Below, one piece after another: positions 10,095-54,400 of a DNA stretch of 64,000 nt. The notes beneath the pieces were generated by a model. It had not been told where the DNA came from. It searched no databases and saw only the letters and a program-made list of their open reading frames with translations. Positions within the stretch are counted from its first letter, which is position 1; every line of letters starts with the position of its first letter. Where the stretch lies: the NCBI GenBank assembly GCA_051294375.1, contig CM119270.1, positions 12,337,676 through 12,401,675 on the forward strand, written 5' to 3'. The position numbers were made by a program, and so were the translations under genes. This stretch comes from Paraspadella gotoi. Taxonomy: Eukaryota > Animalia > Chaetognatha.

Positions 10095-10830
10095 CCCCCT
10101 CTTTCCGTTTCCTCCCTTCTCCTCCCCGCTCCCTCTCCTCTGTGCCAAAGGCGAGAAGTGTGACTAGCGTCAGCAAAGAAGAGTGAAGAGAAAAAAAAAA
10201 GAGAAAGAGAAGAAAGAGAAAAAAAGAAGAACGAGTCGGAAGGATATTAAAGAAAGAGAAAATAAGGAATGAAAAGGGAATTTTTATATCACAATATGCA
10301 AGTTTAAAAGTTTTAAATAATTATAAATTGGTACAACCAATATAAAAATTATCCATTCATTTAATTATAAGCTATCTTGCCCCTGACTTTGGACAGAAAG
10401 AGAGGAAAATAAAAAAAAAACCCTTGTAATGGAAAGAAACAAAAGAAAAAAATAAGGGATTTGATGATTGCGGTAAAAAAGCAAAGAGATCGTGATTTTT
10501 ATTTGTTTCTCTTGGGTCCCGAAAAAACCCGGGAAAATGATATGCGTGCGCACAACTCGCTCACCCTTATTATTTTTTTTTTAAAAACCTTTCTGCTTTT
10601 GTTTGGGGAAAAATTTTAGCCGATTCGAGAATTGGTTGTACCATTGCATTGCATTGCCATTGGAGGATCGTCCGTCGTTGTTGTCATTTCTAGACAAGTC
10701 GTGACTTTAAACATCCACTGTGATTGAATTTTTTTAACTGTCTTTATTTAAAAAAAAAAAAATTCTTTCAGTTGTTTTAGTATAGGACCTATATAAGAAA
10801 ATATTTAACATCTCTAATGCTACCAGCTTT

Positions 10831-17200: not shown

Positions 17201-19157
17201 ACCACGCAAGGTAGCATATTAGGCAACTACAATAACCTTCCTTTTTTCCTCTTTCTCGTGCAAGTCGGTCGCGACGGCCACTTTGCCCTAGCTTTGGCAA
17301 TGACCTTCGACCCGACTGGACAAAGTAAGAGGACCGAGGAAAACGTAAGGTCAAGTTGGTCCCGGTGTTGATGTATGTGGACCCGTAAACAACATCACAC
17401 TATTTTCACTTCGATAACATATTTATTACGTGAATAGATAATTTATGTATTAATCGTACCATTTTCGTTTAGCTCTCATTAATCCATTCGCAGCTTAGAC
17501 TCGCCTTGGTGGTAATCAAGGGTTTGTTCATCTTGCAGGCTTTCTTGATGTCGACCTCGGTCGTGTTCACGCATCCGGGTACGGGGCGGTGCACGTCCCA
17601 AAACGCGCGCTCTTGAGAGTCTAACACCTTCCGCTCCAACTTGTCGCGCTTTTTGTCGATCCTGGGAGAGTGACAAACGTCTTTTGCATTAAAAACCACT
17701 TTATCGATCAATGTTACTGTTTGATCAAAATCTAATATTACGTACGAAATAAATTACCGGCTAATTTTTACGTACAAATTAAAATAAATAACAAAATATA
17801 AACATTGCTCAAGTGATATACTTGGCCTGAGCCTCCGCCTGCATAAAAATGAATTCCCATTTCCGCGAGAACATCTTTTGAAGTCTGGCCAGATTCTCGG
17901 CCTCGTAGTCGACCAATTCTAATCGGGTCTTGTTCTGCATCGTCCTCTTGCACAGATACACGGCTGATCAGTGATCAGTATTTAAATGGGAAAGAAAACG
18001 TTCGGAAAAAAACAAAAACAAAAAAAAACAGGGGAAAATTATAAGGTCATGAAAGATTCAGTGGATGTAAACTGCTTTTTCTTGATTCATTTATCTCAGG
18101 CTGTTGATAAAAATATTCGTGCTATCTCACCGTAATCAATGTTTTCCGGTTCCCAGTGATTACTAGGCCAATAATACGGAGTTTGAAACCTGCAAAGTGC
18201 GAACACATATACACGAATTCTACTATTACAGTTAATCCAGACTTAGTAAGGTATAATGATTATAATTCGACCGGTAAAAAGTGTTGTCGTTTTTCACAGT
18301 GAGAACGTGATCGTCGATGGGAAAGAAGTAGCCATGAGCGGCCATGAGGTGAGCCAAGTGAAGGGCCTCTTGCGTGTCCTCGATGTCCAGATTTTTCATC
18401 ATCCAAGGAATCAAGTCGGTACCTGTTGTGAATTTTCGGTCAATGTGAAGAAGCATCGGTTCGAGGATCTAACGTCGCGTGAGAGGGAGAATCACGCTCA
18501 CCCGTGAAAACGCTTGGAATTTTCGCCATAAAACTCTTGACCGTCTTCACCGGAACTCCTTGACGTTCGTCTTGCATCCTCTTCACGATTTTCTCCATCT
18601 TGAAAAGATGAAATTACGAAGATGTATTACTTTGGAACAAAAAATTAGATTTTTCACGGCAATTGTACCGCAGTTTTCATCGGACGTTTCAACCTTTGTA
18701 AAAAACGAAGCGTGAACTTAAACGGCATTGTAGTTGGTAATAACGTTTAAAAATCTCACCATAAATCGAAAAATTATCTAATGTGTATGTATAAATTGTA
18801 TATGTATAACCGTTGTAAAAGAATAATGTCGGAGAGAAGTGATGACGACTTACGATGGATTTCGAACACGACTCACCTTGGCGTAGACGAGCAGGTTGGG
18901 CATCTCGTCGGGCGACATGGCGCCGTTGATCATGGCGTCAGACTTGGAGGAGGGGATGGTCGAGCCGGCGTTGGGCATACCCGTCGCAGGGTTGGCGGAA
19001 TCGTTGGAAGACAATTGAACTGAAGAGGATTTTAAATTAAACAAATTTACATTAAATGTAAATCGAAAAAAGATTCGCTTTCTTAAAAATAATTTTCGTC
19101 CGACATAATGTTTTTCGCTTTTGGTGGAAAAGGAGAATTATCATCATCATTATAATA

Positions 19158-19247
<90 letters not shown>

Positions 19248-19300
19248 TATCATCATCATCATCAATCATCATCAATCATCATCAATCATCATCATCATCA
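11269..19300 (+). repeat. Copy 2 of the large direct duplication (the cleaner, largely open-reading copy)
   Basis: Colinear with 1-8520; the conserved RGS7 exons are intact here. Confidence 0.97.
13041..13480 (-). CDS. Possible terminal exon of the RGS7-like gene (Pro/Ser-rich C-terminal tail)
   Basis: GC-rich block downstream of the RGS exons; minus frame reads ...GPSPRKSAPSPRKSTPSSPSPSPSAAAAG...LSPQP*. The splice link to 14435 could not be resolved. Confidence 0.4.
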
Positions 19301-19903
19301 TCATCATCGACTTTTTCTTTTCTCTCTCGTTTTTTTTAACAAAGTCTAGAATTGTTTCTCTTTCTTTTTTAATTCTTTCTTTTATTTCTTTTCTCTCGAG
19401 TCACAATGAACGGACGATGAAAAAAAAATCAATTCTTTCGGGAGAGAGAACAGAGAAAGTCGGGCACGCTACTACAGCGGGCTCAATGATTATTACAGAC
19501 GTCATCGGGATATTACATATTCATTTAACAATACCGGTTAGTTATAGTTAACAGAATGATCTTATATATATTTGGGAAAATTTTTTTTAAAAATCCGCAA
19601 TATTTCCAATATTGGTACAACCAATATAAAAAAAATATCCATATAATTAAATAGTAAACGAAAACGAAAAGGTAAAATTTATCACGCTGCCCCCTGCCGA
19701 GCAGTACCAACCTCTGCTAACCAAGCAAGCAAAGCCCCCCTCTCAAATCTTGCCCTACCTAACGACGCCGAATTAGAAATACCCCGTCGAACCGGCGCCG
19801 GACTTTTATCGCCGACGTCGCCCAACGCCTGGGCCTTTTTGTCCGCGCCGCCTATGACGGCGTCGTCGGCGCCGGGACGATTTGGCGCCACCTCTGCGTC
19901 CAT
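14435..19903 (-). CDS. RGS7: Regulator of G-protein signalling, R7 family (RGS7/RGS6/EGL-10-like; DEP-DHEX-GGL-RGS)
   Basis: Exons: 19903-19759, 19019-18877, 18598-18502, 18422-18272, 18189-18131, 17963-17822, 17661-17505, ~17385-17237 (noisy, frame unresolved), 17109-16961, 16681-16442, 16319-16245, 15747-15630, 14739-14647, 14454-14435; phases match at all other junctions. Translation includes [80 protein letters not shown] (GGL), [10 protein letters not shown] and [13 protein letters not shown] (RGS). Confidence 0.95.
19140..19307 (+). repeat. (AAT)n/(ATC)n microsatellite in an RGS7 intron
   Basis: Directly visible. Confidence 0.95.
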
Positions 19904-21050: not shown

Positions 21051-21686
21051 GAAAATCGAAAAAGGAGATCCTTTTTTTTTCATTTTTAGAAACTTTGGTT
21101 TTGGTTTTTGGGAATTATAATGGTTTAATAAGAAATATCTATTCAATTGTGCTGAAATTTTGCACTTTTAAATACAAACTATGATTATATGTAATGGAGC
21201 TTAGTCTTCAGTTCAAATCGTTTGGACATACGACGGAGATGTATAGATAACTATTTAGAGAACCGATGATCAGAATCTAATCTTAATAATTTGTGAGATT
21301 CCGAAAGTTTTTTTATTGTTTAAAATGTGGGTCCCGGCATTTAATATTTATATAAAGTGGTCTGTTGGGGTACCTAATTAAAATTACAAAGGAATATACT
21401 ATTTACTTCAACGAAAAAACAAATGATCATTGTTTAGAAATTTCTCTTCGGAGGTCACGCTCAACGGCAAAAGTTAAACAAAAGGGTACATATTATGTTT
21501 GCGGAATTTTAAGGCTTTTTTCGTTCATGCAATTCAAGTTATTTTAAATATGTCTGAATTTTACTACATTTGGTCATGACATAAAAATCCAGAAATAAAA
21601 TATCTAAACTTATAATACTAAAATCGAATGAGATATGGTTCATTTCGCCAGTTTAATAATATTTTTTGTTTAGAAAGTTGCTGTTA

Positions 21687-21819
21687 CATTATCTTGTAAG
21701 AGAGATGGAGGCCTTAAACCACCAAAGCCTGTCCATTGTCCAGTGTCCAAAGTCAGGGGCAAGATAGCTTATTTATTAAATGAATGGATAATTTTTATAT
21801 TGGTTGTACCAATTTCATA
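21687..21819 (+). mobile_element. Longest copy of a short dispersed repeat family (~9 copies in the window)
   Basis: Shared end ...GGATAATTTTTATATTGGTTGTACCAATTTCAT also at 22149-22204(+), 22846-22914(+), 48499-48520(+), 10326-10394(-), 19612-19640(-), 31202-31315(-), 34169-34212(-), 37710-37732(-); copies are variably truncated at the other end. Confidence 0.85.
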
Positions 21820-23723
21820 TACTAATCGGCTATGTCAAAGTGATAACCGGCAGTCGTAAAAACATGATAAGGTAATTTTTTATAAAACAGGCTATCCTCA
21901 ATGGCAAAACAAAACGTCTTGTTACTTTGTTTGCTTCATCAGTTTTTGCTGCCATCTCGTGTCTGATATCGTACCTCTCTATTGTTATTAAGACAATTGC
22001 ACAGTAGTCCCATCCTTTAGATATAACTTTTCGTTTAAGACGGCATAACTTACATAGTAATTTATAATTAATGCAGCTTTTATAGGATTAAAAGAGTTAT
22101 AAATTTTAAATTATATATAATAGATGACAATAAATGATGACAATAACTAGATAGCTTATTTATTAAATGAATGGATAATTTTTATATTGGTTGTACCAAT
22201 TTCATTTATTTCAAGTCTAACAGTTTCAAACAAAACTTGAAGTTTATTCGTAATTTTTATTTTATTTTAATTAGTCTTAATGTTAAACATGACAATTCAA
22301 TAACTTTCAATGAATATTATTCCCTAGCATCAAATCAGCTAATAAAATAAAACCTATATATAAACAACGAAAACCAAACAAATAATTTGATCGTAGCCTT
22401 TAAAAAAGGTGGGCAATGCGTGACTGGCCTCGTATTGTTTGCTGCCCTCCGAGTCGTAATTGCCTCACGTCAATCAGCCATCGCATGTTCACCGAAGCTC
22501 GCAACGACGTTCACCTCCAGATCACAGATTGTCGAAAGCAGGCGGACCGGCGTGCGATGTGGCCAGGATCGACCCGGTGAGAAAGAAGAAGGGGGGAAGG
22601 GGAGGGAAGGGGAGGGTTGAGAAAAAGGGAAGGAAATAAAGTAACGATTATATTGACAGTAAAATAGTAAAACATAAATGAACAAAAAGAAAGAAAAAAG
22701 ATACAAAACAGGGAAATGAAAAAGAAAAAAAGGGAAAAATGAAGGGGAAGAAAAAAAAAGAAAAAAGGAAGAAAAGAAAAAAGAGAAAAAAAAGGGAAAA
22801 AAGATTAAAAAATAAGAAAATAAAATAAAATAAAAGCCTGTAGCGAGTCAGGGACAAGATAGCTTATTTATTAAATGAATGGATAATTTTTATATTGGTT
22901 TTACCAATTTCATAGAAAAAAGAGAAAAAATAAAAAAAAAAGAAAGAAAGAAAAAAAAGAGGGCAAGAAACAAATCGGATGACAGCAGAGAAAATAAAAA
23001 TAGGGGAAGGAGAAAAAGAAAAGTCCGGGAGAAAAAGATTAAGTAAAGGAAAGAAAAAAAAACATGGAGATATAAAATGGCCCAGTCATCGAAGCAGAAC
23101 GATTTAACCAAAGGAAGGGAATTTGACCGAAGAAAAAGTAGAACCGAAAAAGATTAAAAAAGCATTTGAGCTGCCTGTGAGGCTGTTAGGCTGTGAGGTT
23201 GTGACGGACCAAGCGAAAACCAGCCCTCAAAAAAACAAGAAAAAACTGAGAAATTCTTAAAATTCTTAAATTGAGAGAGTCTGATAAAAGTAAATAGTAG
23301 TCCGGGGAAATGTTGCTAGTAAACTGGGAAAAATTGACAGACCAACATGGCGACTTACCGACTCGCGATGAAGTCAAAATCGGCAGCTGCAGAGGGTATG
23401 CACCTTGAAAATCCAATTTTATCTAGAATCAAAATTCAATGGTGATATATATAGTATTATACACCTTATTACACACATATATCTTACACACACATTTATT
23501 CAACATATTCAAAACATCACCTTTTCATTTTCCATAAAGTAGTGGCTCACGAAATATTCACCAAACAACTCCTTACAATTTGTTTACTTATTTTTCCTTC
23601 TTTTTCGTGTTCCTCTTTTTTACGGTCAAATTCTCGGTTCTACGGTTGACCGAACGTTCCGCCTCAATTATACTGTAAGGACTAAGGACAACGTATTTGG
23701 TTTCATCTTTCCCCATTTTTTTC

Positions 23724-29608: not shown

Positions 29609-31689
29609 CGGCGGCGACAAGAATTCGGACGACAGATGCGACGATATCAGGAAGATTTTTTTCGCGACGACGACGACTATGATCTCTGGGCGAAAAATTG
29701 TAACGAGAGTTTGATGGATGTCAGGTGATTTATTACGAAAGTTTAACAAAAGTAAAACAAAACATGTATATACATACAGCACATTAAAATTTCGAAATAA
29801 TACTAAGTAAATTTAAAAGAAAAACCGAATCTATCGTCGAAAAGCATTTAATACAGATCAAAGAAAAAATGTTTCGCATTGTCATTAATGACGAGAATAA
29901 AATTTTAAGCGATAAAGGATGATGATAAAATTTTATTTGGGCAATTATTTTTAAAAAAGAATATTCTTAATCGTTTCCTAATTACACAATGAACGTCGGT
30001 CCTTTTGAGCTGGCTCTTGGTTGAGCATGCTCATCTCCCGGACATTAAGAAAGAAAAAAAGAAAATTCTTTTGCCAAATTATAGGTGTTCGACATCGATT
30101 GTTTTCCCTTTTTTATAATAGATAATAGATAAAGATGCAGAGTCGATTACAAATTTTCACGCGCTACGAAACGGGCGATTTCATTTTGTCATATCTTTCT
30201 TTATTTTTGTATAATGTACATTGTACAATTGTACATATCAACCTTTTCAAATAAACTAATAAAGTCTTTTTAGTCGCGGCTGAAAGCGACTATATAAGAC
30301 GCTCTTCGGCCTGTCTATCAATCACTTCACTTGCTTACATCCTCTGGGTCTTAGTTGCCCTTAAGGTTATCTTCTAAATTTTAAATCTTTGTAATTAATC
30401 TTCTACAACTGTTTTTGTTCTGTTTCCTTAAATAAAAAAATCTTAAAAGAATAGTGATCTCGCCATTCGTTACTATTAAAAAAAATTAGGGAAAAAGTAC
30501 TATAATCTAATTTGCATATTGCAGTAAATCATAATAAAGTGGAAATTCAAACAAAAAATACTTGAATCAATATAAAACAAAAAAATTGACACACATTTCA
30601 ACTGCCTCACTGCTTAACTAATGAAACTTGACAACTACGTACATTATTTAGTAGTTATACCATAAACCTACAAAAAAAAGATAAAAATCGTTTATTATTA
30701 TTGTATGGCTACTTAAGAGAAGTGGCGAGAGATAATAGGAGAGTGGTTCAACCTGGATTATGATATTCATTGATATGATGATAATCATTTATCGATGTAA
30801 TGATTTCTGGTTAAAACTTTGCAGAGAAAACGTGTGCCAGATAGCGCTTTAAATTATGCTAAAAATGGTTAGTTTTTTTTTAGTATGTTAATTATTATGC
30901 TAAATTATCTTTTAGCAAATTTAATGCAAATCTGTTACAAGAGTAAAGAGAAATTATTATTATTAGAGCCTATGAAAAATTATTTAGACAGATAAAAACA
31001 AAAAAAGATAAAAAAAATAATACTTTCTGTGAATTGCTTAATGCTTAAGCGATGAGCCATATAACCAGTCAAGTCATGTAAAAGGTTTTTTGCAGCAGTA
31101 ATTTTCAAACAGACCAACCAACCAACTGACGCTATAGCATTTTACACAAGCATCTCAGAGAAAAATCGGTATTAACCAAATACTTTGGCTTTATTGTATA
31201 CAATTGGTACAACCAATATAAAAATTATCCATTAATTTAATAAATAAGCTATCTTGCCCCTGACTTTGGACAGGCTTTGGTGGTTTAAGGCCCCCATCAC
31301 TCTTACAAGATAATGACATAGCAAGTCCCTGCAAGCTTTCAATCAAGACTCTCTCACAGTCTCATTTATTCACTCCCAGTGTACCTGGCCTCCCTATCAA
31401 TGAAGTGGAAAATATTTCAAAGAATGTTTCAATTGTATTAATTGTATTAATAGCAATCCGTTCCTGGTCTCAAATAATTGTAATAGGAATTAACATGATT
31501 GTTATCAAAGAAAAAAATAATAAAACAAGCAAATAGCATATTTAATACAGATTTGAATTGCCAGAGGAAATGTTTTTCATACTCTGTCCAATGCTGTAGA
31601 TCGAAAAATCTTAAATTTTTTTCACAATTGAATATGCCAGATTGTATGCTGTATGTGTGGATAAGGCGCTACGTAGGCTGAAGATGACT

Positions 31690-33844: not shown

Positions 33845-34503
33845 GCATTAAGGCATAGTAAAATTCCTAAATTTAACTTTAATTAAAATTCTAAAAGTGA
33901 GGAACGAACAACATTATACTAATGAACATTTATGTAATAAAAAAATTTATAATAAATTTTACAATTAATGCAGTAGGCTCTATTTATACTAGTACTAAAC
34001 CAATAAATGTTAAAATTTCAAAACAGTTTTTTTAAAGATTTTTTTGCAGATTTGGATTCGTCATAAAAAGTTTATAAAAAGAAATATAACTCTTTTTGAA
34101 AAATTCCTTCATTAAGTGGGTCAAAAATTAGAAAAAGCTATAATTTAAGCTGAAAATTAACTTTTTATATGAAATTGGTACAACCAATATAAAAATTATC
34201 CATTCATTTAAATATAGTTTTTTTTATTTTTAACCCACTTAATGAAAGAATTTTTAAAAACGATTTATATTCTCTTTTATCAATTTTTGACGAGGAATTC
34301 AAATCTGCAATCAAAATTAAGAAAAGCCTATTTTGAAATGTTTTGATTTTATAAGGATAGTACTATATATAAATATAGCCTACTGCAAAAATTAAAAGAC
34401 ATAAAATTAATTTTTTTTACAAATTAATGTTCACTGATGGTATGTTGTTCATAATTGACTTTTAGAATTTTTGTATGTAACTTTTCACTACGCCTTAGTG
34501 GGC
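33845..34503. mobile_element. Foldback/MITE-like element with ~300-bp imperfect inverted arms
   Basis: Arm 33845-34148 mirrors 34208-34503 (e.g. TGCAGTAGGCT/AGCCTACTGCA, TTCATTAAGTGGGT/ACCCACTTAATGAA, TGCAGATTTG/CAAATCTGCA). Part of the right arm recurs at ~36150-36330. Confidence 0.8.
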
Positions 34504-37500
34504 ATCGCCGGGGATAAAATGGCCCACTCTCTCTCTCTCTGTCTGTCTCTCTCTCTCTCTCTCTCTCAGAGAGAGTAAATCACGAATTAAAAAAATAAAT
34601 TAACAATTTTTGAAATCCTATTCATATAGATTATAGATTTTAAATTTTTTTCCTCTACACATTTTTATTTTTTTCATTTTCTATCTTCCATGATTTTTTA
34701 ATTTCCTAACTTATTTTTTTTCACTTAATTTTTTTGTCTATTTTCCATTTAATTTTGATTTGTTTCATTGGTATTTAATATTTTTTTAACTAAAACCAAA
34801 AAAAATTACAATCTGTATTATAAAAGATTTAAAAATGATTAAGAAAGAATATTTATTTGCTAACAAAAAAGCTTAAGATTGAATACAAGTGTTTTGCTCG
34901 GGCTTTTGTTTCAGCTTTGCTCCATTCTTGGTATAAAGCGACCTCTCAAAACAATTTGGGGCAAAGGCATTTTTCCCAGACAAAAGATAATGTTAAAAAC
35001 TTTGCTTGACTTTTTTTATAAAAAATATATTTAGGTAATCAAATTAAAATTAAAAGGAAATAAATCAACTAAATGTTTAAGTATTTAAAAAATATTTTGT
35101 TTTTATTTATAGTGTTTAAATTTAAAATTCATAATTAGATGAATTGATTATTAGTAAAAAAAAATTTTGTAAAAAAAAAAAATTACAGTGCCGAAACAAC
35201 TTGAACTTGTTAGTTTCTGTTTTATTTGTTAGTTGCTTTATTTGACATAAGGGCAAACGTTTTCACTTATTTTAATAGTGTTTAATTTTGTGCTCTATTT
35301 TAAATTTTTTTAAGCATTTTTTTGTAAACCAATTTTTATTTTTATTTCCTCATCACCTATTAAATTATTTAATATTAAAAACAGAAAAAGGTTCATGGAT
35401 TTCTCAAATAAAAAATTGGAGACCTGACGTTATTCTTATTACCATAGTATTAATGAAGAAAATCATTACTACAAATTTTTACAGTATAAACAAATTAATA
35501 CTGCAGCATTCACTAACATTTGTGATAATAAAAAATTATTCTGGATATGACCCCCATAGCACTTCATCTAAGCATTTTTAAGGGAAAAATACTATAATAT
35601 TCATAAAAGGGAAAGATAAGGAGTTTTAGTTTCTTTTAACAAAATTAAATTTTTAAAAATTACAAATTTTATCATCAGCAACTTTTGTAGTTAATTAGAT
35701 AAAGAATTTGTACCTTGTGGGACTATTAAAATACCTTGAAAGGAATTCTCAACTAAAAAATTAAATTTCTAGCATAAGCCAAAACTGTATAGCATACAAT
35801 ATAAATCAGTTTATACTTTAAAATTTTATAATTAAAAAAAAATTGAAGCTGCAGTAAGCTGCATTAACTTAAAATACTATACAATTACCGGGATTAAGTC
35901 CCTGACTTATAAACCATCGATCTATGTTATTTATACAATGTAATATACTCAGTTACTAGAATAAAGTAAGATTTCTTTTAATGTAATTTATCCAAATTTT
36001 GGCCTCAGGGCATTTGGCCCCATATAATACAGTATCTAAATTCATTTGGATATTGCAGTATGGGGCGAATTAAATGTAATGCTCAACCATACTTGTAACC
36101 GTAATTTTATCATTCTCGACCCATTATTGAATACACAGTGATACCAAAAATTTTTTAAAATATGTTATATTTTCTTTTATCTACTTTTGACGAGGAATTC
36201 AAATATTTAATCAAAATTAGGAAAAGTCTATTTTGAAATTTTTTTTTTATAAGGATAGTACTATATATAAATAAAGCCTACTGCAAAAATTAAAAAAACA
36301 TAAAATTAAGTTTTTTTTATAAATTAATATTAACTCGCTCTACTGAACATGTAGTAAAATGATCAATCAAATAATTGATAAAACTAATTTTTTTAGATAT
36401 ATCATTAAGTATAAATTATTAAAGGAAATAGTAATTTATATGTATGAAAACAAAAAAGAAAGAGAGGGGTAGACAGAGAGAGAGAAAAAAAGTGAGAGAG
36501 AGATAAAAATAGAAAAAAAGAAAGAGAGTTAGAAAGAGATAGAGATACAAAGAGATAGAGATACAAAGAGAGAGAAAAAGAGAGAGAGAGAGAAAGAGAG
36601 ACAGAGAGGAGAGAGATATGAAAATTAAAAAAGAGAGAATAAGGTAGAAAAAGAGAGAGAGAGAGAGAGAAAGTGAGAGAGTGATAAAAAAAAAAAGAAA
36701 TAGTGAAAAAAAGAGAGAGATAGAGATAGAAAGAGAGAAAGAGAGAAAGAGAAAGGTAGACAGAGAGAGATAAAATAAAATAAAGTGTTTAGGAATGAAT
36801 CTAAATGCAAATAAATTATTTATTTTTAAATTAGGATTGTTAATATTTTTTATGTTTTCAGTTAAAATATTTTTATAACAAGGACTGTTTATAATAAACA
36901 TTTTTTGTGATTAGGGGTGGGGATAGGGCTTTAAATGTCAATCCCCATCAAAAATAGTGGTGGGGATTCCCCAAAACTTAGGAAAAAAAGACGGTTTTTG
37001 AGAACAGAAAGAGGGCGCAGTTGAAACTGTCCCCTTATAGCCCGTTTAAACTGCGCCTTTTTGGACGGCGCAATACTTGTCTCTTTATCATCCTTGTTTT
37101 TACATTTTTTCTAGTTTTTTTGCTTCTTTTCACCGTTTTGCCCAGACCCCTTTTCTGCATTCTGTTTCTCGAACAGTTTCATTAACTTTTTTTAAATTCA
37201 ATATTGTATTCCTATTGATTAACCTTTCTAAAACTTTTCAGTCGTCCCGTTCATCCTCTATCATTCATCCCTCGTTCGGTCACTTAGAGAGTCGTTTAAA
37301 CTTTCTCTTTCAATGGGAAAATTTTAATACAAAAAAAGGATATTTTTTTTACTATCAACGTTCACCAATTTGACATTTGAATGACAAAAGGTTTTACAAC
37401 GTCGGAAATAAAGGCTCAATAGGAGAGAAACTAAATTGAAAGCGGAAGGCTGCTAAAGTGTGTCAAAGTTGGACAAAAAATAAAAGACAAAAGTAAAGGA

Positions 37501-40620: not shown

Positions 40621-42146
40621 ATGAAAGCCAACACTATGGTCGCTACCTCCGCCCCTGCCGTCAGCTTCTTGCACAAAATCTCCAAGGCGTCGCATGGGCG
40701 CGTCATCAAGCGGGAGGTCGTCTCCGAGGCGGAAGAGATGCGGGAACTCTTCTCGATGCTGAAGAATCTCGTTCCCGGCCTGGCGCCCACCGCTCAAATC
40801 TCCAAGACGGAGCTTCTCCAGCACGTCATCGACTACATCAGCGAGTTGTCGGCGACGCTGGAGGAGGCCGAACAGCCCGACGAAGATTTCGAAAATAAGG
40901 TAATTTGATCGACAGATTTTTACTAAGTTTTTTTTTTCTTTTTTCCTCACAAGTCGTTTCTATTTTATTAAGAATCAAAAAAAAAAACTTGTTGGTCACC
41001 GGATGTATTTAATTTATCCCATCGTCTCCTCGGTTTCCTGTAAAGTTCATCCGACAACTTTTTTTTTTCACCCTAATTGACGGACCACCCGATTTTCCTA
41101 CTGTTTTTCGATCTCGAAGTCCAACCCTCTCAAGTCCCCGCCCTTTTGCTTGTCCTCCCCCTCTTTGTCCTTCCCTCCCCTCTCCATCTGGATAAATATT
41201 CACTTCCTAATCTGCTTCTCTTTTCTTTTCTATTTTCTTTTCAAATTCGAAAAGATAATATCGTATCGTGGTAACCGAGACGCATTTAACGATTTAACTT
41301 TGACGAAATTCGTTGTTTTTGGTGAGAGTCGTAACCCTCCTTTGCAACGTTACTCCTTCCGCTCATTTTTTGAAAAAAAGTTTGGATTAAGTCCAGGTGT
41401 TGTTCTTTTAAAAACGCGTAGCCTTGCAGCTGCGGTTCGATGAAAAACTAAAAAAAAAAAGTGATTTCAGGGTTTTATTGGATAGGAAAAAGTTGTGAAG
41501 GGGAAAAAAAAACAACTAAATGCAGCATAAATTATGAGTCAGGGGGAGAAAAATGTTTTCATTGATTGAGAAAACAAAAGAGCTTTCCATTTTTAATTTT
41601 TATTCGTCTTAATCATTTGTCACGAAACCTTGTTTTTTTTTCCTTCTTCAAAAATAATAATACATTCTCTAGTAAAATTTTTTCTTCTTAAAAAGAAAAT
41701 ATGCAAATGCTACTGTGAAGAAAGGAGGGGAAGAAAGGGAAACACCTGCAACGGGAGTCTCCAAGAAACACAAATAAAACAGATTAAAACGGATTTGGTC
41801 GCATGAAGCTAATTTAAAAGGATTTTTTTCGTTGCGCAAAGCTAATTTTTCCGTCTTAACCGAATTAAAGACAAACAAGCGACGTCACATCGCGGGACAA
41901 GTGTAAAACAGCACGTGTTTTTCCGAGCGCCAAAATTAAATCATTAAAGATGTGTTTTTAAAAATTAAGAAAAAAGTAGAGAAATAAAAATAGAAACGAC
42001 TTTACGGATTATTATTTCTTATTTTTATTAAAAATTTGTCACTCGGTCATTAAATGTTTTTGCTCATTTGTTTTTTTTCTCAGGAACCGGAACCGGAACC
42101 GACGCCGATTGCCGCCTCCGACGCCGAATCCGACGTCTCCAACTGA
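40621..42146 (+). CDS. emc: Inhibitor of DNA binding / extramacrochaetae-like HLH protein (113 aa)
   Basis: Exon 1 40621-40899 (MKA... start; HLH EEMRELFSMLKNLVPGLAPTAQISKTELLQHVIDYISEL with no basic region), AAG|gtaatt donor; exon 2 42084-42146 after ttctcag (EPEPEPTPIAASDAESDVSN*). Confidence 0.9.
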
Positions 42147-43267: not shown

Positions 43268-44771
43268 TTAATTTACATTTTTTTGTAAACTTTTTACGTA
43301 CACTTCTAATATGGCTCATATTTAGTTAATTTACCTTTTTTTGTAAATTTTTTACGTACTTTTCAAATATGGCCATTTTCATCAAGTAATAATTGTCATT
43401 TTTGACCGCTTGAAACATTTTGATTTGCAGTTGAATAGAAAATTGATTTTTACTAACTTGTTGTCCTCATTTAAAAATGAATAAAATAGATAAATATAAT
43501 GAATTTTTAGCTTGCCACAGTGCTGCCTCTTAAGCCTAAACTTTTCTCTGTCACATGACAATTTATTTCGGAAATTTGAAATTCCGACGAGGAATCGGTT
43601 TTAGTTATTATGCAATTACGAGGGGAGAAAAACTTCTTGTGACCCTCGCTCTCGTGATTCGTGAATGATTCAACAGCTGCGAGCGATTAAAAGTCGAGAA
43701 CTAATGACGAGGCTGATTAGGTCCGCTGTGAATAATTCCTGTGAGAATTAACCCTTCTTTCGTGACTGAAGACGTCGCATCTGCGGTTTTTGGTTGTGAT
43801 GTGTTGTATTTTTACCATCTGGGTATTTTTCGAGGTTGAAAAACGTCATATGAAGTTTTAAAATTTTGTTTCATTCTTATTGTATGTAGTTAAGAAATAT
43901 GAATGGATGTGCTAATTGACACAAAATACAAAATATAAAATATCAATTTTAAATTACATACATCTTTACATGGCTATTTCTTAAACAATCGAGTTTGCTC
44001 CATCATACAAATTTTACATTTGCCGACTGTAATTGGGGAGAGTTTTGGGGGAGAGGTGGTTACTGGTTAGGGTTAGGGTTAGATTTAGGGTTTAGAGTGA
44101 TAATATTTTTTTAAAAATAAATTTTTTTTTATACGGTGTTTCAAATAAAAGAAAAAAAAAATCCGAAAATTTTATCAATAATTTCTTTCTTCAAAATATT
44201 TTAATTTAAAGAAAAAAGTTTTTTCAAAAGGTAAGGGAAAATAAAGATGCATTCCAAATTGTCACTTTGTTTTCTTTAAAACGAGTCATCACGATCAAGA
44301 CTCCCTACGACCTCTAGCGTTTTTTTTTTCAAGTAAAAAGATAAATGACGGTTTGTTTAGTAGCATGTTTAATTGTTTTTAAACCAGCCCAATTAATCTT
44401 GCTTCTTTAAAATTAAATTCATGCAACCCCATTTTTTACATTTAAGTTTCACACTTTTTATTCATTCAGCTCAATTCCGTTTGGTTACAATGTGAGCGTT
44501 AAAGAAAATCAATTAAAATCAATTAAATCGAATCAACTCTTGCTTTATTCGGGCGTCTCTTACAACTCGTTCTACCAGTTCAGCTCTGCACAGTCGGCCG
44601 GAAAAAAAAGTTATCAGCCTTATTTCGGACTGAAAATGTGTTTCTTCTCATTATCATGACAATGAATAACGCTTCTTGTTTAGAAAATTACATATATGTC
44701 GAAACTGTAACTTGATCTTCAGAATTACAAAAAAACAAAAAACAAAAACAAAGACAAAACAAAACAAAACC

Positions 44772-45297
44772 ATGACTCTTCCACTCAAACGTTTTCTACC
44801 TCGTTCCGGTTCCCCCAAATTCTCTCTCGCTTTTCTCTCGTCCTCATTCGTCCGCCATGTTTCCCCCAACGTCCTCGCCCACTCGTCGTCAGTTTCCAAT
44901 GGGACCGAATCCCATTTCGGGTTCGAGGCTGAGGACATCGCGACGGCCAAACCCTTGGCCTCGATCCCCGGACCTCGGAGTTATCCGGTGGTTGGGTCGT
45001 TGCTCGCCTTCAAGCCCTTCGGGGATCTGGACTTATTCGACGCGATATCCAGGTTTTTTGATTGCTTGATTGCTTGCTTGATTGCTTGATTGATTGATTT
45101 ATGTATTTATATTTATTTACTGATTATTTTACTGATTCGTTCATTGATCCTGATTTTTAGTCGGTGCGTCTGGTAGTCTTTTTGATTGGCTGTCTGTTTA
45201 TCATGCTGTTTGTCAGTTTGTTTGTCTGTGTGTCGGTGAAAGAAAGAAAATTAAAGAGGATTTTATTGTCTGTGTGATCTTTCAAAGGAATTTGGAA

Positions 45298-45381
<84 letters not shown>

Positions 45382-45568
45382 AAAACGTTTGGAAAACAAA
45401 TGAACAGAGAATCCAAGTGAATGATCGCATTTAGTGACATTCCGTACGCTTTTACAGAGTATCATGTATTTTAACACGAAAAACAAAAGACCTCTTTGAC
45501 GTACTAGTTGCTGTCCAGGGGCATGTACTGTTCAATTCAATTCTCTCTCTTTCTCTCTCTCTCTCCCT

Positions 45569-45600
<32 letters not shown>

Positions 45601-48600
45601 CAAAAATTAGAGGATCAAAATTGGAAAACCGCTACGGGAAGATAATTCGAATGCACTTTCCGATTATGGGAATGAAAGACTCTGTATCTTTGCTGGACCC
45701 TCGTGATTTCGCCATCGCTTTTAGAAACGAAGGTACATATAGCAAATTTATGGCCATAGTTATAGTAATAACACGCTTTATTTAATAATAAAAATGTTTT
45801 TTTCGAATAATAACCTACATATTTAGGCAAATATCCTCGCCGCCCCAATTCTAACATTCTCAGGTAGATTAATTAAAAAATATATTAACCTTATCTTTTA
45901 TTTAAAACTCGCATTAAAAATATCAAAGTAAGCGTGGCATACATTCGATAGCCATTTCAATTCACTTAACCCTACGTCAGCGTTTACCGCGAGGAACGGA
46001 AAAAAGGCCTCGGCCTCTTTATGACCAACGGCGAAGAATGGTGGCGCTTTCGTCAGCCGCTTAACAAGACGATGACGCGCGCCAACGCAGCTTATCCTTA
46101 TTTGGATATTCAGTCTTTAGTCGGGGACGAGCTCATCCAGAAAATCGGGATGGAAGTGGAAGGGAAGGACGGAAGGTATCCCGAGATCATGAAGGTGAGG
46201 TCTGAGGACAGATTATAAATATGGTTTAAATATGATTAAAAAATTATGATAAAAAAAAAAATTTAAATGTGCAAATTTTATGAAAATAATTTCATTTTTC
46301 ACCATCTTTTTCGTTAAGTTTTGAGATGAAAGCAAAAAAAAATTTTTGGTACAGAAAACGTTGCGTGTTTGTTAAAAACTTCTTAAAATGATAATTGAAT
46401 TATAGTTACTAACGAGTTTCGTTACGCGAGTCGCCGATCAGATTTCGTTTCTTGAGTTTGATTCCTCTGCGATGAGCTTGTGTAATATTTTTTCTCGGTC
46501 TGAAGAGACAGTAATAATTGTTATGAGTTAGCAACATAACCGTCCCTGAGCTTCGGATAACACCGTATTACAGGCGGGTTAAGCGCCCCGTCCCTCTTAA
46601 CTGCTAGGCGACCACCGAGTTAGAACCCCGGACCTTTGGGTTGGGAGACGAATGACTTACCTCCTGCACCAATAGGCGCTGATGAACTGTTGGTGGATTT
46701 TAGTCAACCATACGTCATTTTTTCGACAGGTCATGTTCCGTTGGGCCTTGGAATCCGTTTGCGCCGTCGTCTTCGATCGTCGCTTAGGATGCATGGACCC
46801 AAATTTGCCTAGCGACGCATGGCAACAAAAGTTTATCGATTCCGTTCACGGCGCCTTCGCTACCATGTTTAAACTCATGTTTAATCCAACGCATAGAATC
46901 GCTTACAATCTCGGATACAAAACGAAGAAATGGAGACAAATGGAGGAATATATGGAGTAAATTACATCGACTGGAAAACAATTGCTAAAACTTTATGCAC
47001 GACAGTTTCATTAAAATACTTATCATAATTTACTTTTTTTTTTAAAGTTATATTGACCAAACTACGTTGGACTTAATGCACGAAACGAAAAAGATACTCG
47101 AAGCGGATACAGACGTTGACCTCAACAAACGCTTCCTCCCACAGTTGTTCGCTGCTGACGACCTCAAATTACCGGTTCTCTATTAACTTTATTAACATCG
47201 CTTGACCATTGACCAATCTGACCAAACGTTCCAAATGAACGCGAGAAATATTTTATTTTTAGGACAAAGTCTCTGTTATTTTTGACATGATGCTCGCGGC
47301 CATCGACACAACTACTTACTCCATGTTCAGAACGTTGTTCTTTCTTGCCAAAAATCCAAATGAACAGGTGAATTTACGTCAGATGTAAATTCTGTCTACG
47401 TATAAAATAAACAATTTCAGTTGCTTGATAGTTGAGCTAATTCAGGAAACGCTTACACGGAACTGAATTCGGTGGTCGGATCGCCTGGTTCGCTCATCAC
47501 TCTACGATACTCTCGAAGCTTCATTATCTAAAGGTAAGTCATTGCCAAAAAGTCCGTGATTATTAATTTGACATTGTTTTTCAAAAACACCCCATTTCTT
47601 TTAAATTAAGTTCATTTTAAGTATAAAAGATAATGATTAAGGTTAGGGTTGGGATTGCTCATTTTTCGCTTCGTCGAAAGCGGGCGAGTTTTTAAGAATT
47701 ATGAATATGTTAAGATTTAGTAACAGAACCGTTCAAATAAGCAGTCCCTGAGCTTCGGGTCAGGGTGTAATACCGTGTTACACTGAACTTACAGGCGGGT
47801 TAAGCACCCCGTCCCTTTTAACTTCTACGGCGACTCCAGACGACCACCGGGCTAGAACCCCGGAACTTTGAATTGGGAGGCGAATGACTTGCTCCTGCAC
47901 CAATGACCTCTGATGATCGGTTGGGGGATTTTAGTCCACCATAGGAATATGGTTTTTGGTTAGAGGTTAGGGTTAAATATTAAAGTTAGAATTAAATTCA
48001 AGAATCAGGAATGGGGTGCTTTCGAATATAAATATATACATAAATTTTCATAGAAAATATTTTTTGGTATATCGTACAGGCGTGCATCCGTGAAAGCCAA
48101 AGAATGAAACCCATCGTGCCCCAAAACAGCAGAGCTCTTCCCATCGACGTCGTCATCAAAGGATATCTCATTCCCAAAGGAACACAAATATTCGTCAATC
48201 ACGAATACGCGTCCATGTCGCTGGAAAACTTTGACGATCCTCATAGGTATGACCAATGGTCATTGACCATGTGAACATTTTTTAGCATTCTTTGAGCAAA
48301 ACGAAAAGTTTAACTATGATTGTATTCATACCGTAAATTTCTTATTCTTAAAATATAAGTAGAAGCGAGTCTGAGTTATCAGGATGTAATAATATTAACT
48401 GATGAACGTGTAGATATTATTTGTACCAAGATTATTATTGCTTTGAAACGTAAGCATGCTTCATGTCAAAGTATATTTTTAGTTTATAAAATAGAATTAT
48501 TGGTTGTACCAATTTCATAGAATCTAATACACGGACTTCAATCTGGAAAGATTCAAAAGCACTTGCAATCTGATCAAAACGAAGAGTGATGGGGGTTTAA

Positions 48601-49473
48601 ATTTGTTTTGTACTGATAAAAACTACTTGATGTATTTTCCCACCAATTCATAAAATTCTGGCCAAGATAGTTTCTATGTTATAAAGATTTTCCCGAGATA
48701 GTAAATTTCTTAAAAAGCAGAATTTTTATTTTGAAAGAGGACCTTATTATTAATCCTTCCTAATATTTTTTAATACTTTACTTTTTTTATTTTATTGATA
48801 AGACACTGCTGTCAATGAATTACAAGTCAGAATAAAAAGATTAAAACCTATTGAAAATAAAATTTCACTTTTGAAAAAAAAATTTAAAAAACGACTTTAT
48901 TGATATTGATATTGTAATTAAGTTAAGACTTGGATAAAGATAAAAATGAAGAAAAGTGACCCGGCGCTGTTAAGAAATTTGATCATTTTCATCATAATCG
49001 TCAACTACTTTTCTAACTAATAAATAATATAAAAATCACTCCAGATTGAAAACCCTGTATTTTAGTATAATTAATTTTGCAATTTTCATAATGATTAAGT
49101 GTTATGTACCTTTAATTATGCATTTATACGATATTTTTAAATAAAGGTTTATGCCTGAGCGTTGGCTTCGCGATAAAGGAAAACGAGAAATGAATGTTCT
49201 TCCCTTTATTGTTCTTCCTTTCGGCTTTGGACCTCGAATGTGCATCGGAAGAAGGTTTGCCGAGCAGGAACTCTACATCGGATTAATCAAGGTGATTGCA
49301 ATGATGTTACTTTTAATTACTTTTGTTATTTTAAAAGCTAGACTAAGAAAAATTCTTTTCTCAAGATTCTACAAAGTTTTCGAGTGGAATACGAAGGCGA
49401 CAAGCTCCCCTTAAAAGCACCGGGAATCGACAAGCATCCCATCCTCTTGGATTTCATCTTTCATAAAAGATAA
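44772..49473 (+). CDS. Mitochondrial-clan cytochrome P450 (CYP12/CYP49/CYP301-like); exon 8 frameshifted in this sequence
   Basis: Exons 44772-45052, 45611-45732, 45827-45863, 45981-46194, 46730-46956, 47048-47174, 47263-47367, 47446-47533, 48080-48246, 49147-49291, 49366-49473. Presequence-like N-terminus, IPGP, WWRFR, WALES, AAIDTT (I helix), ESQR (ExxR), [14 protein letters not shown] haem motif; AATAAA at 49497. Confidence 0.92.
46537..46712 (-). mobile_element. tRNA(Gly-like)-headed SINE with a damaged twister motif (copy a)
   Basis: A box TGGTGCAGGAGG, anticodon-loop-like CTCCCAA, B box GGTTCTAACTC; homologous to 47740-47943 but lacks the 5' strand of P4. Confidence 0.75.
47740..47826 (-). 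ncRNA. Putative type-P5 twister ribozyme variant
   Basis: AGAAGU(P5) UAAAA GG(P2') GACG GGGUGCU UAA CC C GCC UGUAA..UUACA(P3) CCCUGA CCCGAAGC UCAGGG(P4/L4) ACUGCU(P5'). T1 = CG/CG; predicted cut between 47802 and 47801. Confidence 0.72.
47740..47943 (-). mobile_element. tRNA(Gly-like)-headed SINE carrying a twister motif (copy b)
   Basis: A box TGGTGCAGGAG, CTCCCAA, B box GGTTCTAGCCC; shares a ~35-nt leader before the tRNA head with copy a. Confidence 0.75.
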
Positions 49474-51497: not shown

Positions 51498-54400
51498 TTA
51501 TTCTTTGATTTTTGGATTTCCCACTTGGATCTCTACTTCCACGTCTTCGTCCGCATCTTCCTTGTTTTCTTCCTGCTTTGCCCGATGTTCTTTTGTCGAG
51601 TTTGACGTTGAAGAGGCTGGAATGCAGGGGGCGACGCCGACTTCGATCTCTTCCTCTCGTTCTTCCTCGGATTGCTCTTTTTTCGCTTCGTCGAAAGCGG
51701 GCGAGTTTGTCTGATTATTCGAATCGTCGGATTGATGCGTCGTTTCCATGGATTGATTGACTGACTCGATGGACGACTCATTGGTCGGATTGACGGATCG
51801 ATTGCTTTGGCTTTCCAACGAAGGGGACGTTGACGAACTCACGCCGGCCGAAGATGGCGAAAGCTGATGAAAAAAGATCGCGTTAAAAAAATTGTCACGC
51901 AAAGTTCTTTCCCTCTAGTTACGTTGCGAAATACCTTTGTCAGGTCGTTTTCACTTTTAAGCTTGTTGACTTCTTCCCTTAGACCTTGAACGAGTTGCCA
52001 CAAGGCGTCTCTGTCTTGTTCCACCGTCTGTAGTCTCCTTTCCAATGCTTCGTTTTCCGTCTTTAGCCGTGTGTGACCCTGGATAATTCGCAAAAGGGTA
52101 AACAAATTGCGACTGATACGCGAACATTGAAGAAATGGTTCATGCAGTATGATTATTTGATTAGTCGGATTGATTTGTAAAATTAAAATGGAATTACAAT
52201 AAAACAATCGTCTTGGCTTGCGAATAAATTTGTCCCTGTGACGACGATAGACAATGTTTTGTCTTTACCTTTTTAAGTTCATCCGCGATTTTTTCAAAAG
52301 TATTCGTCTGTGTCTGTAACTGGATCGTCTGCTTCAAGGCATCACCGGTGAATCCAGCGACCTGGGAAAAGAATAAGAATTGAGAATGAATGGACTCACG
52401 CCTTCAACGAGTGAATAGCTCGAAGCTCTCCCCACTCTCACCCCCTCTTGCAGCCTCCGCTCGGCGTGGAGTCTCTTGAACCGCTCCTCGTGCCTCTGTC
52501 GCAAGACGGCGAACTCTTGCAGAAGCCTATGACGGAGACCCGGGTCGACTTTGGACGTGAAGGCGCGTTGGAGGAGAGCCATCTCCGAGTCGTAGGTCGA
52601 TTCATATTCAGAATCGGAGACTGGTGGAAGAGGAGGGAAAGAATGGGGAAGAGAAAAGAGGAAAGAAAAGAGGACAGAAGAGAAAAGAAAAAAAAATAAA
52701 GAGGAAAGAAAATAGGAAATGAATTAAGAGAGGAAGAGAGAAAGGGAGAGAAGTAAAAAAGCAAAGAAGAAGGCGGTGTAGAAGGAGAAAAGGGAAAAAG
52801 AAAAATAACGTGAAACGATTTGTCAAAAAAAAGTTTTGGATTCTGACAGATTTTGTGACTTGGTTGATTTACTTTTCGTATTTTAAATTATTATATTTGG
52901 CTGCGACTTAAGATATTTGTTTTCTTTGTAAGAAGGCGGTCTTTTGTTACAATTTCTTTTGACAAAATTTCAAATTTAAATATTTCTTATATTTTATTCA
53001 CTTTGATAAGTGTTGAAAATGCAAACATTTTTTTGCTAAAAAGATATTCGAAATCGTATTCGAACATCTGCAACTTCTTTCTCACAACATCAAATGACAA
53101 AAATAAAAAGGAATTTTAAACTTACCTTTCCCGCAATTCGAATCGGCGTTTGGCAGTGATTCCGCTTCCATATACTGGCTCTCGTCTTTGGGTGGTTCTT
53201 GCGAGTGGACGAACAGTTTGACATCATCGAGGGACGACTGGCCTTTGGCGGTGACATTGAAAGGAGAGGGGGTGGACGGTTGGGGAGTGGCGGAAGAGGG
53301 GGCGACAGGTGGTGCCAAACCGACGGAGCGGGGTGGGGCAGTGTGGGTCAACGGCGCCAGCGCCACATTGGGCTGGAAATGACGCTCGTATCTAGGAAAG
53401 GAAGAAAAACGCCGCTTTCAATATTTTTTCAAGGAAAGAATAATTGATTATTAGATTTTCTAAGATTAAACGACTTTCCAAGATTAATTAACTTTGTAAA
53501 TTTAGTAATTCGTAAACAAGTGATACTGTAGCTGTCGGTTAACGATAATTGGTACATTGGGGTGTTAAAACAGATATTACTTTCTCCCTTTCTTTCACAC
53601 ACTCATACCTCCCCTGTTCCGAGAAGGGAATAACTCGCTCTGGATTCAAGAGGATGGGCGGACCCGCGCTAAGAAACGCTGGAAGGTCTCGCGACGCGCT
53701 GAAAACAAATACGAAACTAAAAAACTAAAAACAATCAGAATATATGACACTCGTTTAAAAATGTCAATTTACTAATAAGGCCGAAGGGAAATTAAAACAA
53801 AACAAATTCTAGTCTATTTTTACCATCATCTATGAACCTCTTGTGTTAATTAAATTTAATTATAAGAGATTATTACATAGGCGTAAATTGTATTTATACA
53901 TTCCTATACACTAATCAAACGAGTCTACTACATCCCACTTTAAAGTTTTAACAACGAGTCCCAGACAGCATATTTTATAAATTTGTCTCGCGGGGGTCAA
54001 ATCAACTTTCAACCTTTTTAAATCCCCCCTCTCTGTTATCTCTACGTATTACGTTATTTTCACCTCTTGAATTTCTCGTCAGGACCGACGTTCCAAGGCA
54101 TAAAAGCTGATAATTGACTAGCGCCGGAGTCGGCCGAGGGGCAGTCGTTACTGCAATTGCTACAGCTACTAGAGTTGCTGCAGCTTTGATCCGAGGAGCT
54201 GATCTGAATCTTTGGTTTCTTGCTACAGTCGCAGTCCGAAGTCTCCTTCTGCAAAAAATACATTTTAAAGCAAAGACCCGCATGAAAATATGTATTGTAC
54301 TATATAATACGATATTGAAAAAAAAAAAGAACTCTCTCTCTCAACGAGATTAGCGGGTATCTCCCGTCGGTCTCATTTTTTTAATCGCATTTAAAACGAA

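Follow-up and report, generated by a model that had tools for sequence, protein, structure and literature searches.

What kind of mobile element combines a tRNA-like promoter with a self-cleaving ribozyme motif in one short unit, and also carries conserved sequence upstream of that promoter? The question was raised by two related repeats in a 64,000-nt stretch of the Paraspadella gotoi genome (GCA_051294375.1, CM119270.1, 12,337,676-12,401,675; hereafter the window, to which all positions refer), an AT-rich and intron-rich region that carries an emc/Id helix-loop-helix (HLH) gene and a cytochrome P450 (CYP) gene of the mitochondrial clan. An earlier note on this DNA had described the repeats as a tRNA-headed short interspersed element (SINE) with an internal ribozyme, and possibly as a permuted monomer of a circular or tandem RNA replicon. 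The present analysis showed that they belong to a multi-copy, dispersed family of approximately 250 bp with both ends fixed, reading TA...CA in the sense of the tRNA-like domain, and without a tail. In the interpretation tentatively preferred here, whose chance is put a little short of even, both copies are solo long terminal repeats (LTRs) of a small, non-autonomous terminal-repeat retrotransposon in miniature (TRIM) of the Helenus type, with a tRNA-like RNA polymerase III (Pol III) promoter and a predicted type-P5 twister, whose parent would work like an LTR retrozyme. The two copies and the gene that contains them are:

46501..46712, minus strand: copy 1, whole element, 212 nt, with ends TA...CA
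~47692-47943, minus strand: copy 2, whole element, ~252 nt, with two ~11-nt insertions
44757..49470 (approximate span), plus strand: host gene, a mitochondrial-clan cytochrome P450, with the element antisense in two of its introns

As the earlier note had stated, the copies are homologous (80.1% over 156 nt, E 9e-37, blastn) and lie in different CYP introns; both introns (GT-AG, 46195-46729 and 47534-48079) belong to one and the same gene, whose closest named proteins are from a lancelet and a gastropod (65-69%). The right end of the span originally assigned to the element (46537..47943) was retained, whereas on the left the element runs 36 nt further, to 46501. This left end of copy 1 was taken from a depth step at 46500-46504 and from heterogeneous loose ends before 46500/46501, and its other end from the alignment to copy 2 and from junction contigs. 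For copy 2, the end at 47943 was sharp in contigs, and the diverged left end was placed approximately, by alignment to copy 1 (p~0.02). Copy 1 is damaged by an 8-nt deletion in stems P3/P4 of its ribozyme part and by a short deletion in its tail. A hidden Markov model built on the pair (nhmmer) found no third copy within the window. In each copy, the order on the minus strand is a 33-nt leader with a hairpin, a tRNA-like domain, a twister-like domain and a tail. The leader end of copy 1 lies about 15 nt upstream of the 3' splice AG of its CYP intron (46713-46729), and this copy may supply, or may have displaced, the branch-point region of that intron.

The family was characterized in contigs from public runs of one organism. 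Nine runs from three studies carry the stretch; four runs were used per copy, six in all. Copy 2 was covered by 2211, 1667, 585 and 210 contig pieces in its four runs. Cover of the leader was about equal to that of the tRNA and twister parts and stopped sharply, in all four, at the first base of the leader (47943). Cover and sharp end together indicated that the leader is family-wide and not a local duplication of these two copies, an explanation that the earlier note had itself considered. Behind 47943, 80, 83 and 63 junction contigs (in runs X4, X3 and X6, respectively) ran into unrelated sequence (agreement 0.41-0.46). At the opposite end, junction contigs before 46501/46500 numbered 48+19, 47+20, 35 and 18+7 in X4, X2, X5 and X9, and the sequence before 46501 was unrelated among contigs (18-48 per run; agreement 0.39-0.49). 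Over both ends, agreement of the loose ends was 0.39-0.52 and their median length 216-255 nt. Depth in X4 jumped from 3,500 to 566,000-723,000 at 46500-46509; summed contig depth of this kind is no copy number, and distinct junctions amounted to at least 80. Run X9, guessed to be RNA, showed a profile like that of the DNA runs.

No head-to-tail joint occurred among the 15 listed of 21 joints in copy 2 contigs, and no pile of loose ends at the twister cut site among the 24 listed of 220 rows for copy 1 contigs; these tables count contigs, and one shared high-depth junction, such as a tandem neighbour or an internal part with a primer-binding site (PBS) together with a polypurine tract (PPT), could hide in them. 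A contig of X9 at 47841-47944 is 1485 nt long, with a depth of 536 (other listed X9 contigs, 2-53), and one of its ends consists of the tRNA and leader part. The 1.4 kb that follow beyond the leader might come from an internal part, from a different repeat or from a transcript of high abundance.

Flanks of the family were symmetric, with a consensus that starts ATATT at 47943 (3/3 rows) and ends AATAT at 46501 (4/4 rows). This symmetry is suggestive, but no more, of a 4-bp ATAT-type target-site duplication (TSD) in a palindromic site. Several Gypsy clades are described with palindromic targets that have an ATAT core and with a 4-bp TSD, and non-LTR elements with variable TSDs (PMC3276498). At copy 1, the candidate duplication is:

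46497..46500 (GGTC) and 46713-46716 (CGTC), plus strand: candidate 4-bp TSD of copy 1, 3/4 match

The p value of this match is ~0.03, and 3% of the 4-mers in the window match as well. Absence of a poly(A) tail, as previously reported for the element, was borne out; absence of a TSD was too strong a statement, in view of the flank consensus and of the GGTC and CGTC flanks of copy 1. A 7-bp GAATATG repeat around copy 2 (null 0.0035) was dropped as a TSD, its left copy aligning inside the element's own tail. Terminal inverted repeats (TIRs) are almost nil at the TA...CA ends; the 3' end of copy 2 is diverged.

Two further observations concern the surroundings of copy 2. A 40-bp stretch that directly abuts its 3' end (47652-47691) is 39/40 identical, in the same sense, to 51669-51708, 4 kb away in the open frame of a neighbouring minus-strand gene; this exon copy reads as a templated insertion or as template switching upon integration. 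On both sides of copy 2 (47639-47651 and 47950-47990) there are degenerate GGTTAG-type repeats, which recur at 44057-44084 and probably represent an older repeat that served as the insertion site of copy 2.

Outside the ribozyme, the following parts were recognized:

46680..46712, minus strand: leader of copy 1, 33 nt, candidate U3, with a hairpin at 46691-46710
47911..47943, minus strand: leader of copy 2, 33 nt, with a hairpin at 47922-47941
46607..46679, minus strand: tRNA-like domain of copy 1, with A box 46660-46671, CTCCCAA loop 46641-46647 and relaxed B box 46617-46627
47840..47910, minus strand: tRNA-like domain of copy 2, with loop 47873-47879 and relaxed B box 47849-47859
46501..46538, minus strand: tail of copy 1, candidate U5, ending in CA, without poly(A) or repeat tail
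47727..47735, minus strand: tail motif of 9 nt, complementary to leader nt 22-30, forming a subterminal inverted repeat

The shared leader, first estimated at ~35 nt, thus measured 33 nt. Pol III A and B boxes had been claimed for both copies: an A-box-like stretch, TGGTGCAGGAG(G), is common to them and begins at nt 42 of the element, whereas the B box occurs in relaxed form only. Both also share the CTCCCAA loop, in agreement with the Gly(CCC)-like loop noted before. The acceptor stem forms 6/7 pairs in each copy, one base off the canonical spacing, and the T-stem 5/5. ARAGORN did not call the domain as a tRNA, and a TTTT run (T4 terminator) is present in neither copy. The 9-nt tail motif pairs with the leader at 8/9 positions in copy 2 and is also found in the loose-end consensus of the contigs.

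Directly after the tRNA-like domain, as originally proposed, each copy contains a predicted twister:

46539..46604, minus strand: type-P5 twister fold of copy 1, with catalytic G 46592, predicted cut 46581^46580 and a damaged P4 (3/6)
47741..47825, minus strand: type-P5 twister fold of copy 2, with catalytic G 47813 and predicted cut 47802^47801

The order P5, P2', G-A-CGG, a short linker, U^AA, P2, GC, P3, P4, Y-CCG-AAGC, P4', P5' is that of a type-P5 twister, a layout tabulated in PMC8501958; permuted twister forms are named in PMC6765202. Both copies have U^AA in loop L1, the catalytic G45-A46, T2 as GC/GC, and an L4 with ..AAGC in the permuted order. In copy 2, pairs are formed at 3/3 positions of T1, 2/2 of T2, 6/6 of P4 and 4/5 of P5; copy 1 has 4/5 in P5 and 3/6 in P4, the latter owing to its 8-nt deletion, which is without counterpart in other copies. 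A type-P5 descriptor with covarying T1, applied to both strands of the 64 kb, matched only copies 1 and 2, against 0.06 matches per shuffled window (100 dinucleotide shuffles), none of which had a P4 of at least 3 bp; on shuffles of the elements themselves it matched 0/20000 and 2/20000 times. These null rates are somewhat flattering, the descriptor having been written after the copies were seen.

The T1 pseudoknot is CCG/CGG in place of CCC/GGG and is Watson-Crick paired at 3/3 positions in both copies. In an exhaustive scan of the rice twister Osa-1-4, the same swap (C27G/G47C) had a relative activity of 0.86, an entry located by our own column count in the supplement, the G47C row otherwise holding mostly values of about 0.05 (PMC5113685). 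The four Osa-1-4 positions intolerant of any change (G13, G30, A46 and G48; PMC5113685) are all present here. The sole core variant listed in contigs, at 46590 and about 7% in X4, yields a G-U wobble. In copy 2, P3 is interrupted by an insertion and U24 is replaced by C; the majority letters in contigs bring back U24, P3 and the 5' strand of P4, lost from single copies. The two copies are thus damaged at different places, and contigs of other copies carry the restoring letters. Judged from its sequence, the predicted twister of young copies is likely to be active.

Other ribozyme and RNA readings were rejected. Consensus motifs of hammerhead, HDV-like, pistol, hatchet and C/D small nucleolar RNA (snoRNA) gave no fit by eye; the plus strand carries a CTGATGA without a GAAA partner, and Rfam gave no hammerhead match. 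Three Rfam snoRNA matches (E 0.88-5.5) were regarded as chance. The 92 metagenome loci (63 distinct matches) found with a relaxed pattern were likewise taken as chance, with a P4 of 0-2 bp in 61/63 and no blastn similarity at E ≤ 0.01. Patterns of the canonical type-P5 motif matched 11 and 9 loci in viral contigs, in which no stems were seen by eye; the 17 of these 20 loci that were scanned had no Rfam match. The tRNA-head pattern had 0 matches in prokaryote genomes.

How such an element might multiply can be outlined for a parent with two LTRs. Pol III would initiate within the 5' LTR, at its tRNA-like head; lacking a terminator, the transcript would read through an internal PBS/PPT part into the 3' LTR. 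The twister in each LTR would cut this transcript twice, leaving unit-length RNA without terminal redundancy, a state that could be resolved by circularising, as in plant LTR retrozymes. Gypsy reverse transcriptase and integrase would then copy the RNA, regenerate the untranscribed leader as U3, and insert the product at ATAT-like sites, where 4 bp would be duplicated. Recombination between LTRs, or short cDNAs, would give rise to solo LTRs of the kind represented by the two decayed copies. Such a cycle would account for the leader and the fixed ends, since the second LTR serves to restore U3 and integrase sets the ends. The retrozyme-like cycle envisaged in the earlier note is plausible. The full proposal, an animal LTR retrozyme with a twister in place of the hammerhead and a Pol III promoter of its own, whose RNA would be released by its two twisters, closed into a circle and inserted with the help of a Gypsy element, is more doubtful than the assignment of the copies as solo LTRs and should be regarded as rather unlikely.

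A type 2 Pol III promoter would not be expected to transcribe a leader that far upstream, a start 42 nt ahead being beyond its usual reach. The leader may more simply be a U3 like that of Helenus LTRs. Together with the TA...CA ends, the lack of a tail and a likely 4-bp ATAT target, a leader placed before the Pol III promoter is more readily accommodated by a Helenus-type solo LTR than by a SINE or by a tandem monomer in permuted form. One alternative, considered improbable, is a tRNA-headed SINE with a body from the 5' untranslated region (UTR) ribozyme of an RTE-type long interspersed element (LINE), inserted by target-primed reverse transcription, its leader derived from an unusually far upstream start. 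SINEs composed of a tRNA head, an RTE 5' UTR and a 3' UTR are known, one of them with a tRNA-Gly-like head (PMC5786205), truncated twister forms are reported in RTEs (PMC7761336), and the RTE element Perere-3 carries twisters which, as in the present family, have a reduced P1 in an invertebrate mobile element (PMC8501958). The Perere-3 twisters are, however, described as type P1, located at the extreme 5' end of their autonomous LINE, with the TSD beside the cut (PMC8501958), whereas the twister here is of type P5, internal, with T1 CCG/CGG and a 3-nt P2 strand. Moreover, target-primed insertion gives variable tails and TSDs, whereas this family has no poly(A) or repeat tail, a fixed 3' end at 46501, symmetric flanks and an A box that starts 42 nt inside the element. 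A SINE with an internal active ribozyme should also be 5'-truncated (PMC5786205), and the 24 listed of 220 rows contained no pile of loose ends at the cut site. The family-wide leader and the fixed, tailless 3' end thus upheld the earlier view that this is not a standard SINE. A SINE of tRNA plus RTE 5' UTR could nevertheless be the ancestor of the cassette; the readings are not fully exclusive in origin because Helenus itself is proposed to have arisen by insertion of a SINE into an LTR (PMC10886601).

An equally improbable alternative is a non-autonomous, DNA-mobilised element, such as a miniature inverted-repeat transposable element (MITE), a Helentron/HINE or a Crypton-like element, that captured a tRNA-twister cassette, the ribozyme being cargo. 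Fixed ends and a symmetric target would suit TIR transposases as well (PMC3276498), and the short P2 and the deviating B box could be decay; the element is, however, without terminal inverted repeats. Its 9-bp subterminal inverted repeat, with a terminal hairpin beside one arm, recalls the anatomy of HINE/DINE-1, which are likewise noncoding (PMC4067079). As described there, HINEs have a 5' subterminal inverted repeat 2-4 nt from the end, TT-flanked insertions and no TSD, whereas here the arm lies ~35 nt inside and the junction is T/A. The TATGG at one end is shared with CryptonS, in which it is described at both termini (PMC3212892). In addition, the cassette makes up most of the element and the stems of the family majority are near perfect, a state that neutral cargo would keep only if recently captured. 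Less probable still is the proposal of the earlier note, a Pol III-driven replicon in tandem or circular form of which the copies would be permuted monomers, the leader being where the preceding unit ends. Schistosoma Smalpha joins a Pol III promoter to a self-cleaving hammerhead in short animal tandem repeats (PMC6765202), the element is of suitable size (units of 150-450 bp; PMC7229834), part of the leader is complementary to the tail, and a shared head-to-tail junction would be compatible with the contig data. Smalpha and the metazoan non-LTR retrozymes are, however, described with type I hammerheads, in tandem arrays and without a fixed 4-bp target (PMC6765202, PMC7229834), with TSDs, when present, longer than 4 bp (PMC7229834). 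In contrast, copies here are dispersed and single, including both in the window, with fixed ends that do not lie at the cut site and dozens of junction contigs per end that enter unrelated DNA. A monomer cut by its ribozyme would be expected to end at the cleavage site, and reverse transcription rolling around a circle, with no integrase to define the ends, would be expected to leave ragged or multimeric copies.

Several observations weigh against the preferred interpretation of the copies as solo LTRs with a twister. No PBS- or PPT-like flank was found at either window copy, both are single, and no two-LTR copy was seen. Copy 2 shows no TSD at its read-defined ends (1/4), and the rows of the flank consensus partly share loci in AT-rich DNA, the TSD length being deduced without paired flanks. 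The wasp Helenus LTRs inspected have ~8-bp terminal inverted repeats (PMC10886601), of which almost none is present here. The relaxed B box reads GTTCTA in place of GTTCRA. Within the twister, the 5' strand of P2 is one nucleotide short (3 nt against the usual 4; it forms 2 pairs and a mismatch or bulge, and the contigs list no indel there), and P1 is reduced to 0-2 bp; both the 3-nt strand and the near-absent P1 look family-wide. Defects of this P2/P1 type are tolerated among natural type-P1 twisters (bioRxiv 2024.07.11.603121), type P1 being the only one to which these tolerance data apply. Rfam returned no twister match at gathering threshold or at E ≤ 10, the folding energy of the whole elements was like that of shuffles (z 0.63 and 0.10), and an exact pattern of the twister core had 0 matches in metagenome and viral contigs, leaving no covariation from other species. 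The ribozyme part would work like a twister, with P2 and P1 off consensus and no Rfam score.

Among known systems, the Helenus TRIMs (TRIMp3) are described as having an LTR with an internal tRNA-like sequence, TSDs of 4 bp in animals, a Gypsy-type PBS and numerous solo LTRs (PMC10886601). Eight of their LTR consensus sequences in the supplement start with TA, five of them from wasps, and one is complete as TA...CA (PMC10886601). The present family resembles them in having an A/B-box sequence, here with a relaxed B box, behind a leader in a short repeat with fixed ends; the candidate 4-bp target would match that of animal Helenus, the predicted solo LTRs their abundance there, and the TA...CA ends of copy 1 those of some wasp families. 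In contrast, many Helenus LTRs, as far as the source was covered, have a T-run after the tRNA part, in the place taken here by the twister, and the one tRNA-head word tried had no match there. The word 'twister' occurs 0 times in the main text of PMC10886601, and of the twister L4 words cccaagc occurs once and ccgaagc 0 times in the supplement, where line-split words could escape; the single match lies in an internal part.

In plant retrozymes, each LTR is described as carrying a ribozyme, and a 4-bp TSD, solo LTRs and an intermediate in circular form are likewise described (PMC4918200); the N. benthamiana elements are full length at only 9 of hundreds of loci (PMC9695139). Their mobilisation by Gypsy elements via circular RNA has been proposed (PMC4918200, PMC9695139). 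With the copies read as solo LTRs, the present family would share with them a self-cleaving ribozyme in a terminal repeat, a 4-bp TSD and a predominance of solo LTRs, whereas the plant elements have type III hammerheads, LTRs of ~350 bp and no tRNA-derived promoter, and the animal family has a type-P5 twister, ~250 bp and Pol III-type boxes. The family also lacks the SINE2 features of a start at the tRNA head and a variable poly(A) or short-repeat tail; it is neither a canonical SINE2 nor a hammerhead retrozyme. No element with a tRNA-derived promoter and a twister was found in full-text searches of an open-licence library, which left most subscription journals and Repbase outside. This multi-copy combination is real and apparently undescribed.

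LTR retrozymes have been described in plants only, and with hammerheads only, while genomic twisters are mostly without a known role. If the family represents an animal twister LTR retrozyme, it would join TRIMp3 and retrozymes, classes so far described apart, and a genomic type-P5 twister would gain a defined job. With a Pol III promoter and a twister in an animal terminal repeat, cut site, circle junction and PBS can all be predicted. If the ribozyme is dead, or the element DNA-mobilised, the family would be a repeat of minor importance, if an unusual one. With its T1 pair swapped and its P2 short, the predicted twister goes unnoticed by Rfam, and similar elements may therefore be annotated as plain SINEs elsewhere.

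The window contains several other features:

40621-40905: compact extramacrochaetae/Id-type HLH gene, best match 67%
1-8517 and 11269-19281: 8.5-kb tandem segmental duplication with 87% identity, or two haplotypes assembled in line
34246-34435 versus 36146-36335, and 33957-34105 versus 36149-36297: AT-rich repeat with direct as well as inverted copies, possibly a MITE or foldback element
21678-21825, 31191-31324, 10322-10396, 22833-22922, 22146-22214, 34162-34216, 19611-19653 and ~48497-48522: second dispersed family, about 8 copies

Copies of this second family share one fixed end, a short hairpin followed by TTTCATA, with the other ends variably truncated and no TSD seen by eye, and are LINE-tail or Helitron-like. 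In ending with CATA beside a hairpin, they resemble the twister element at its leader end.

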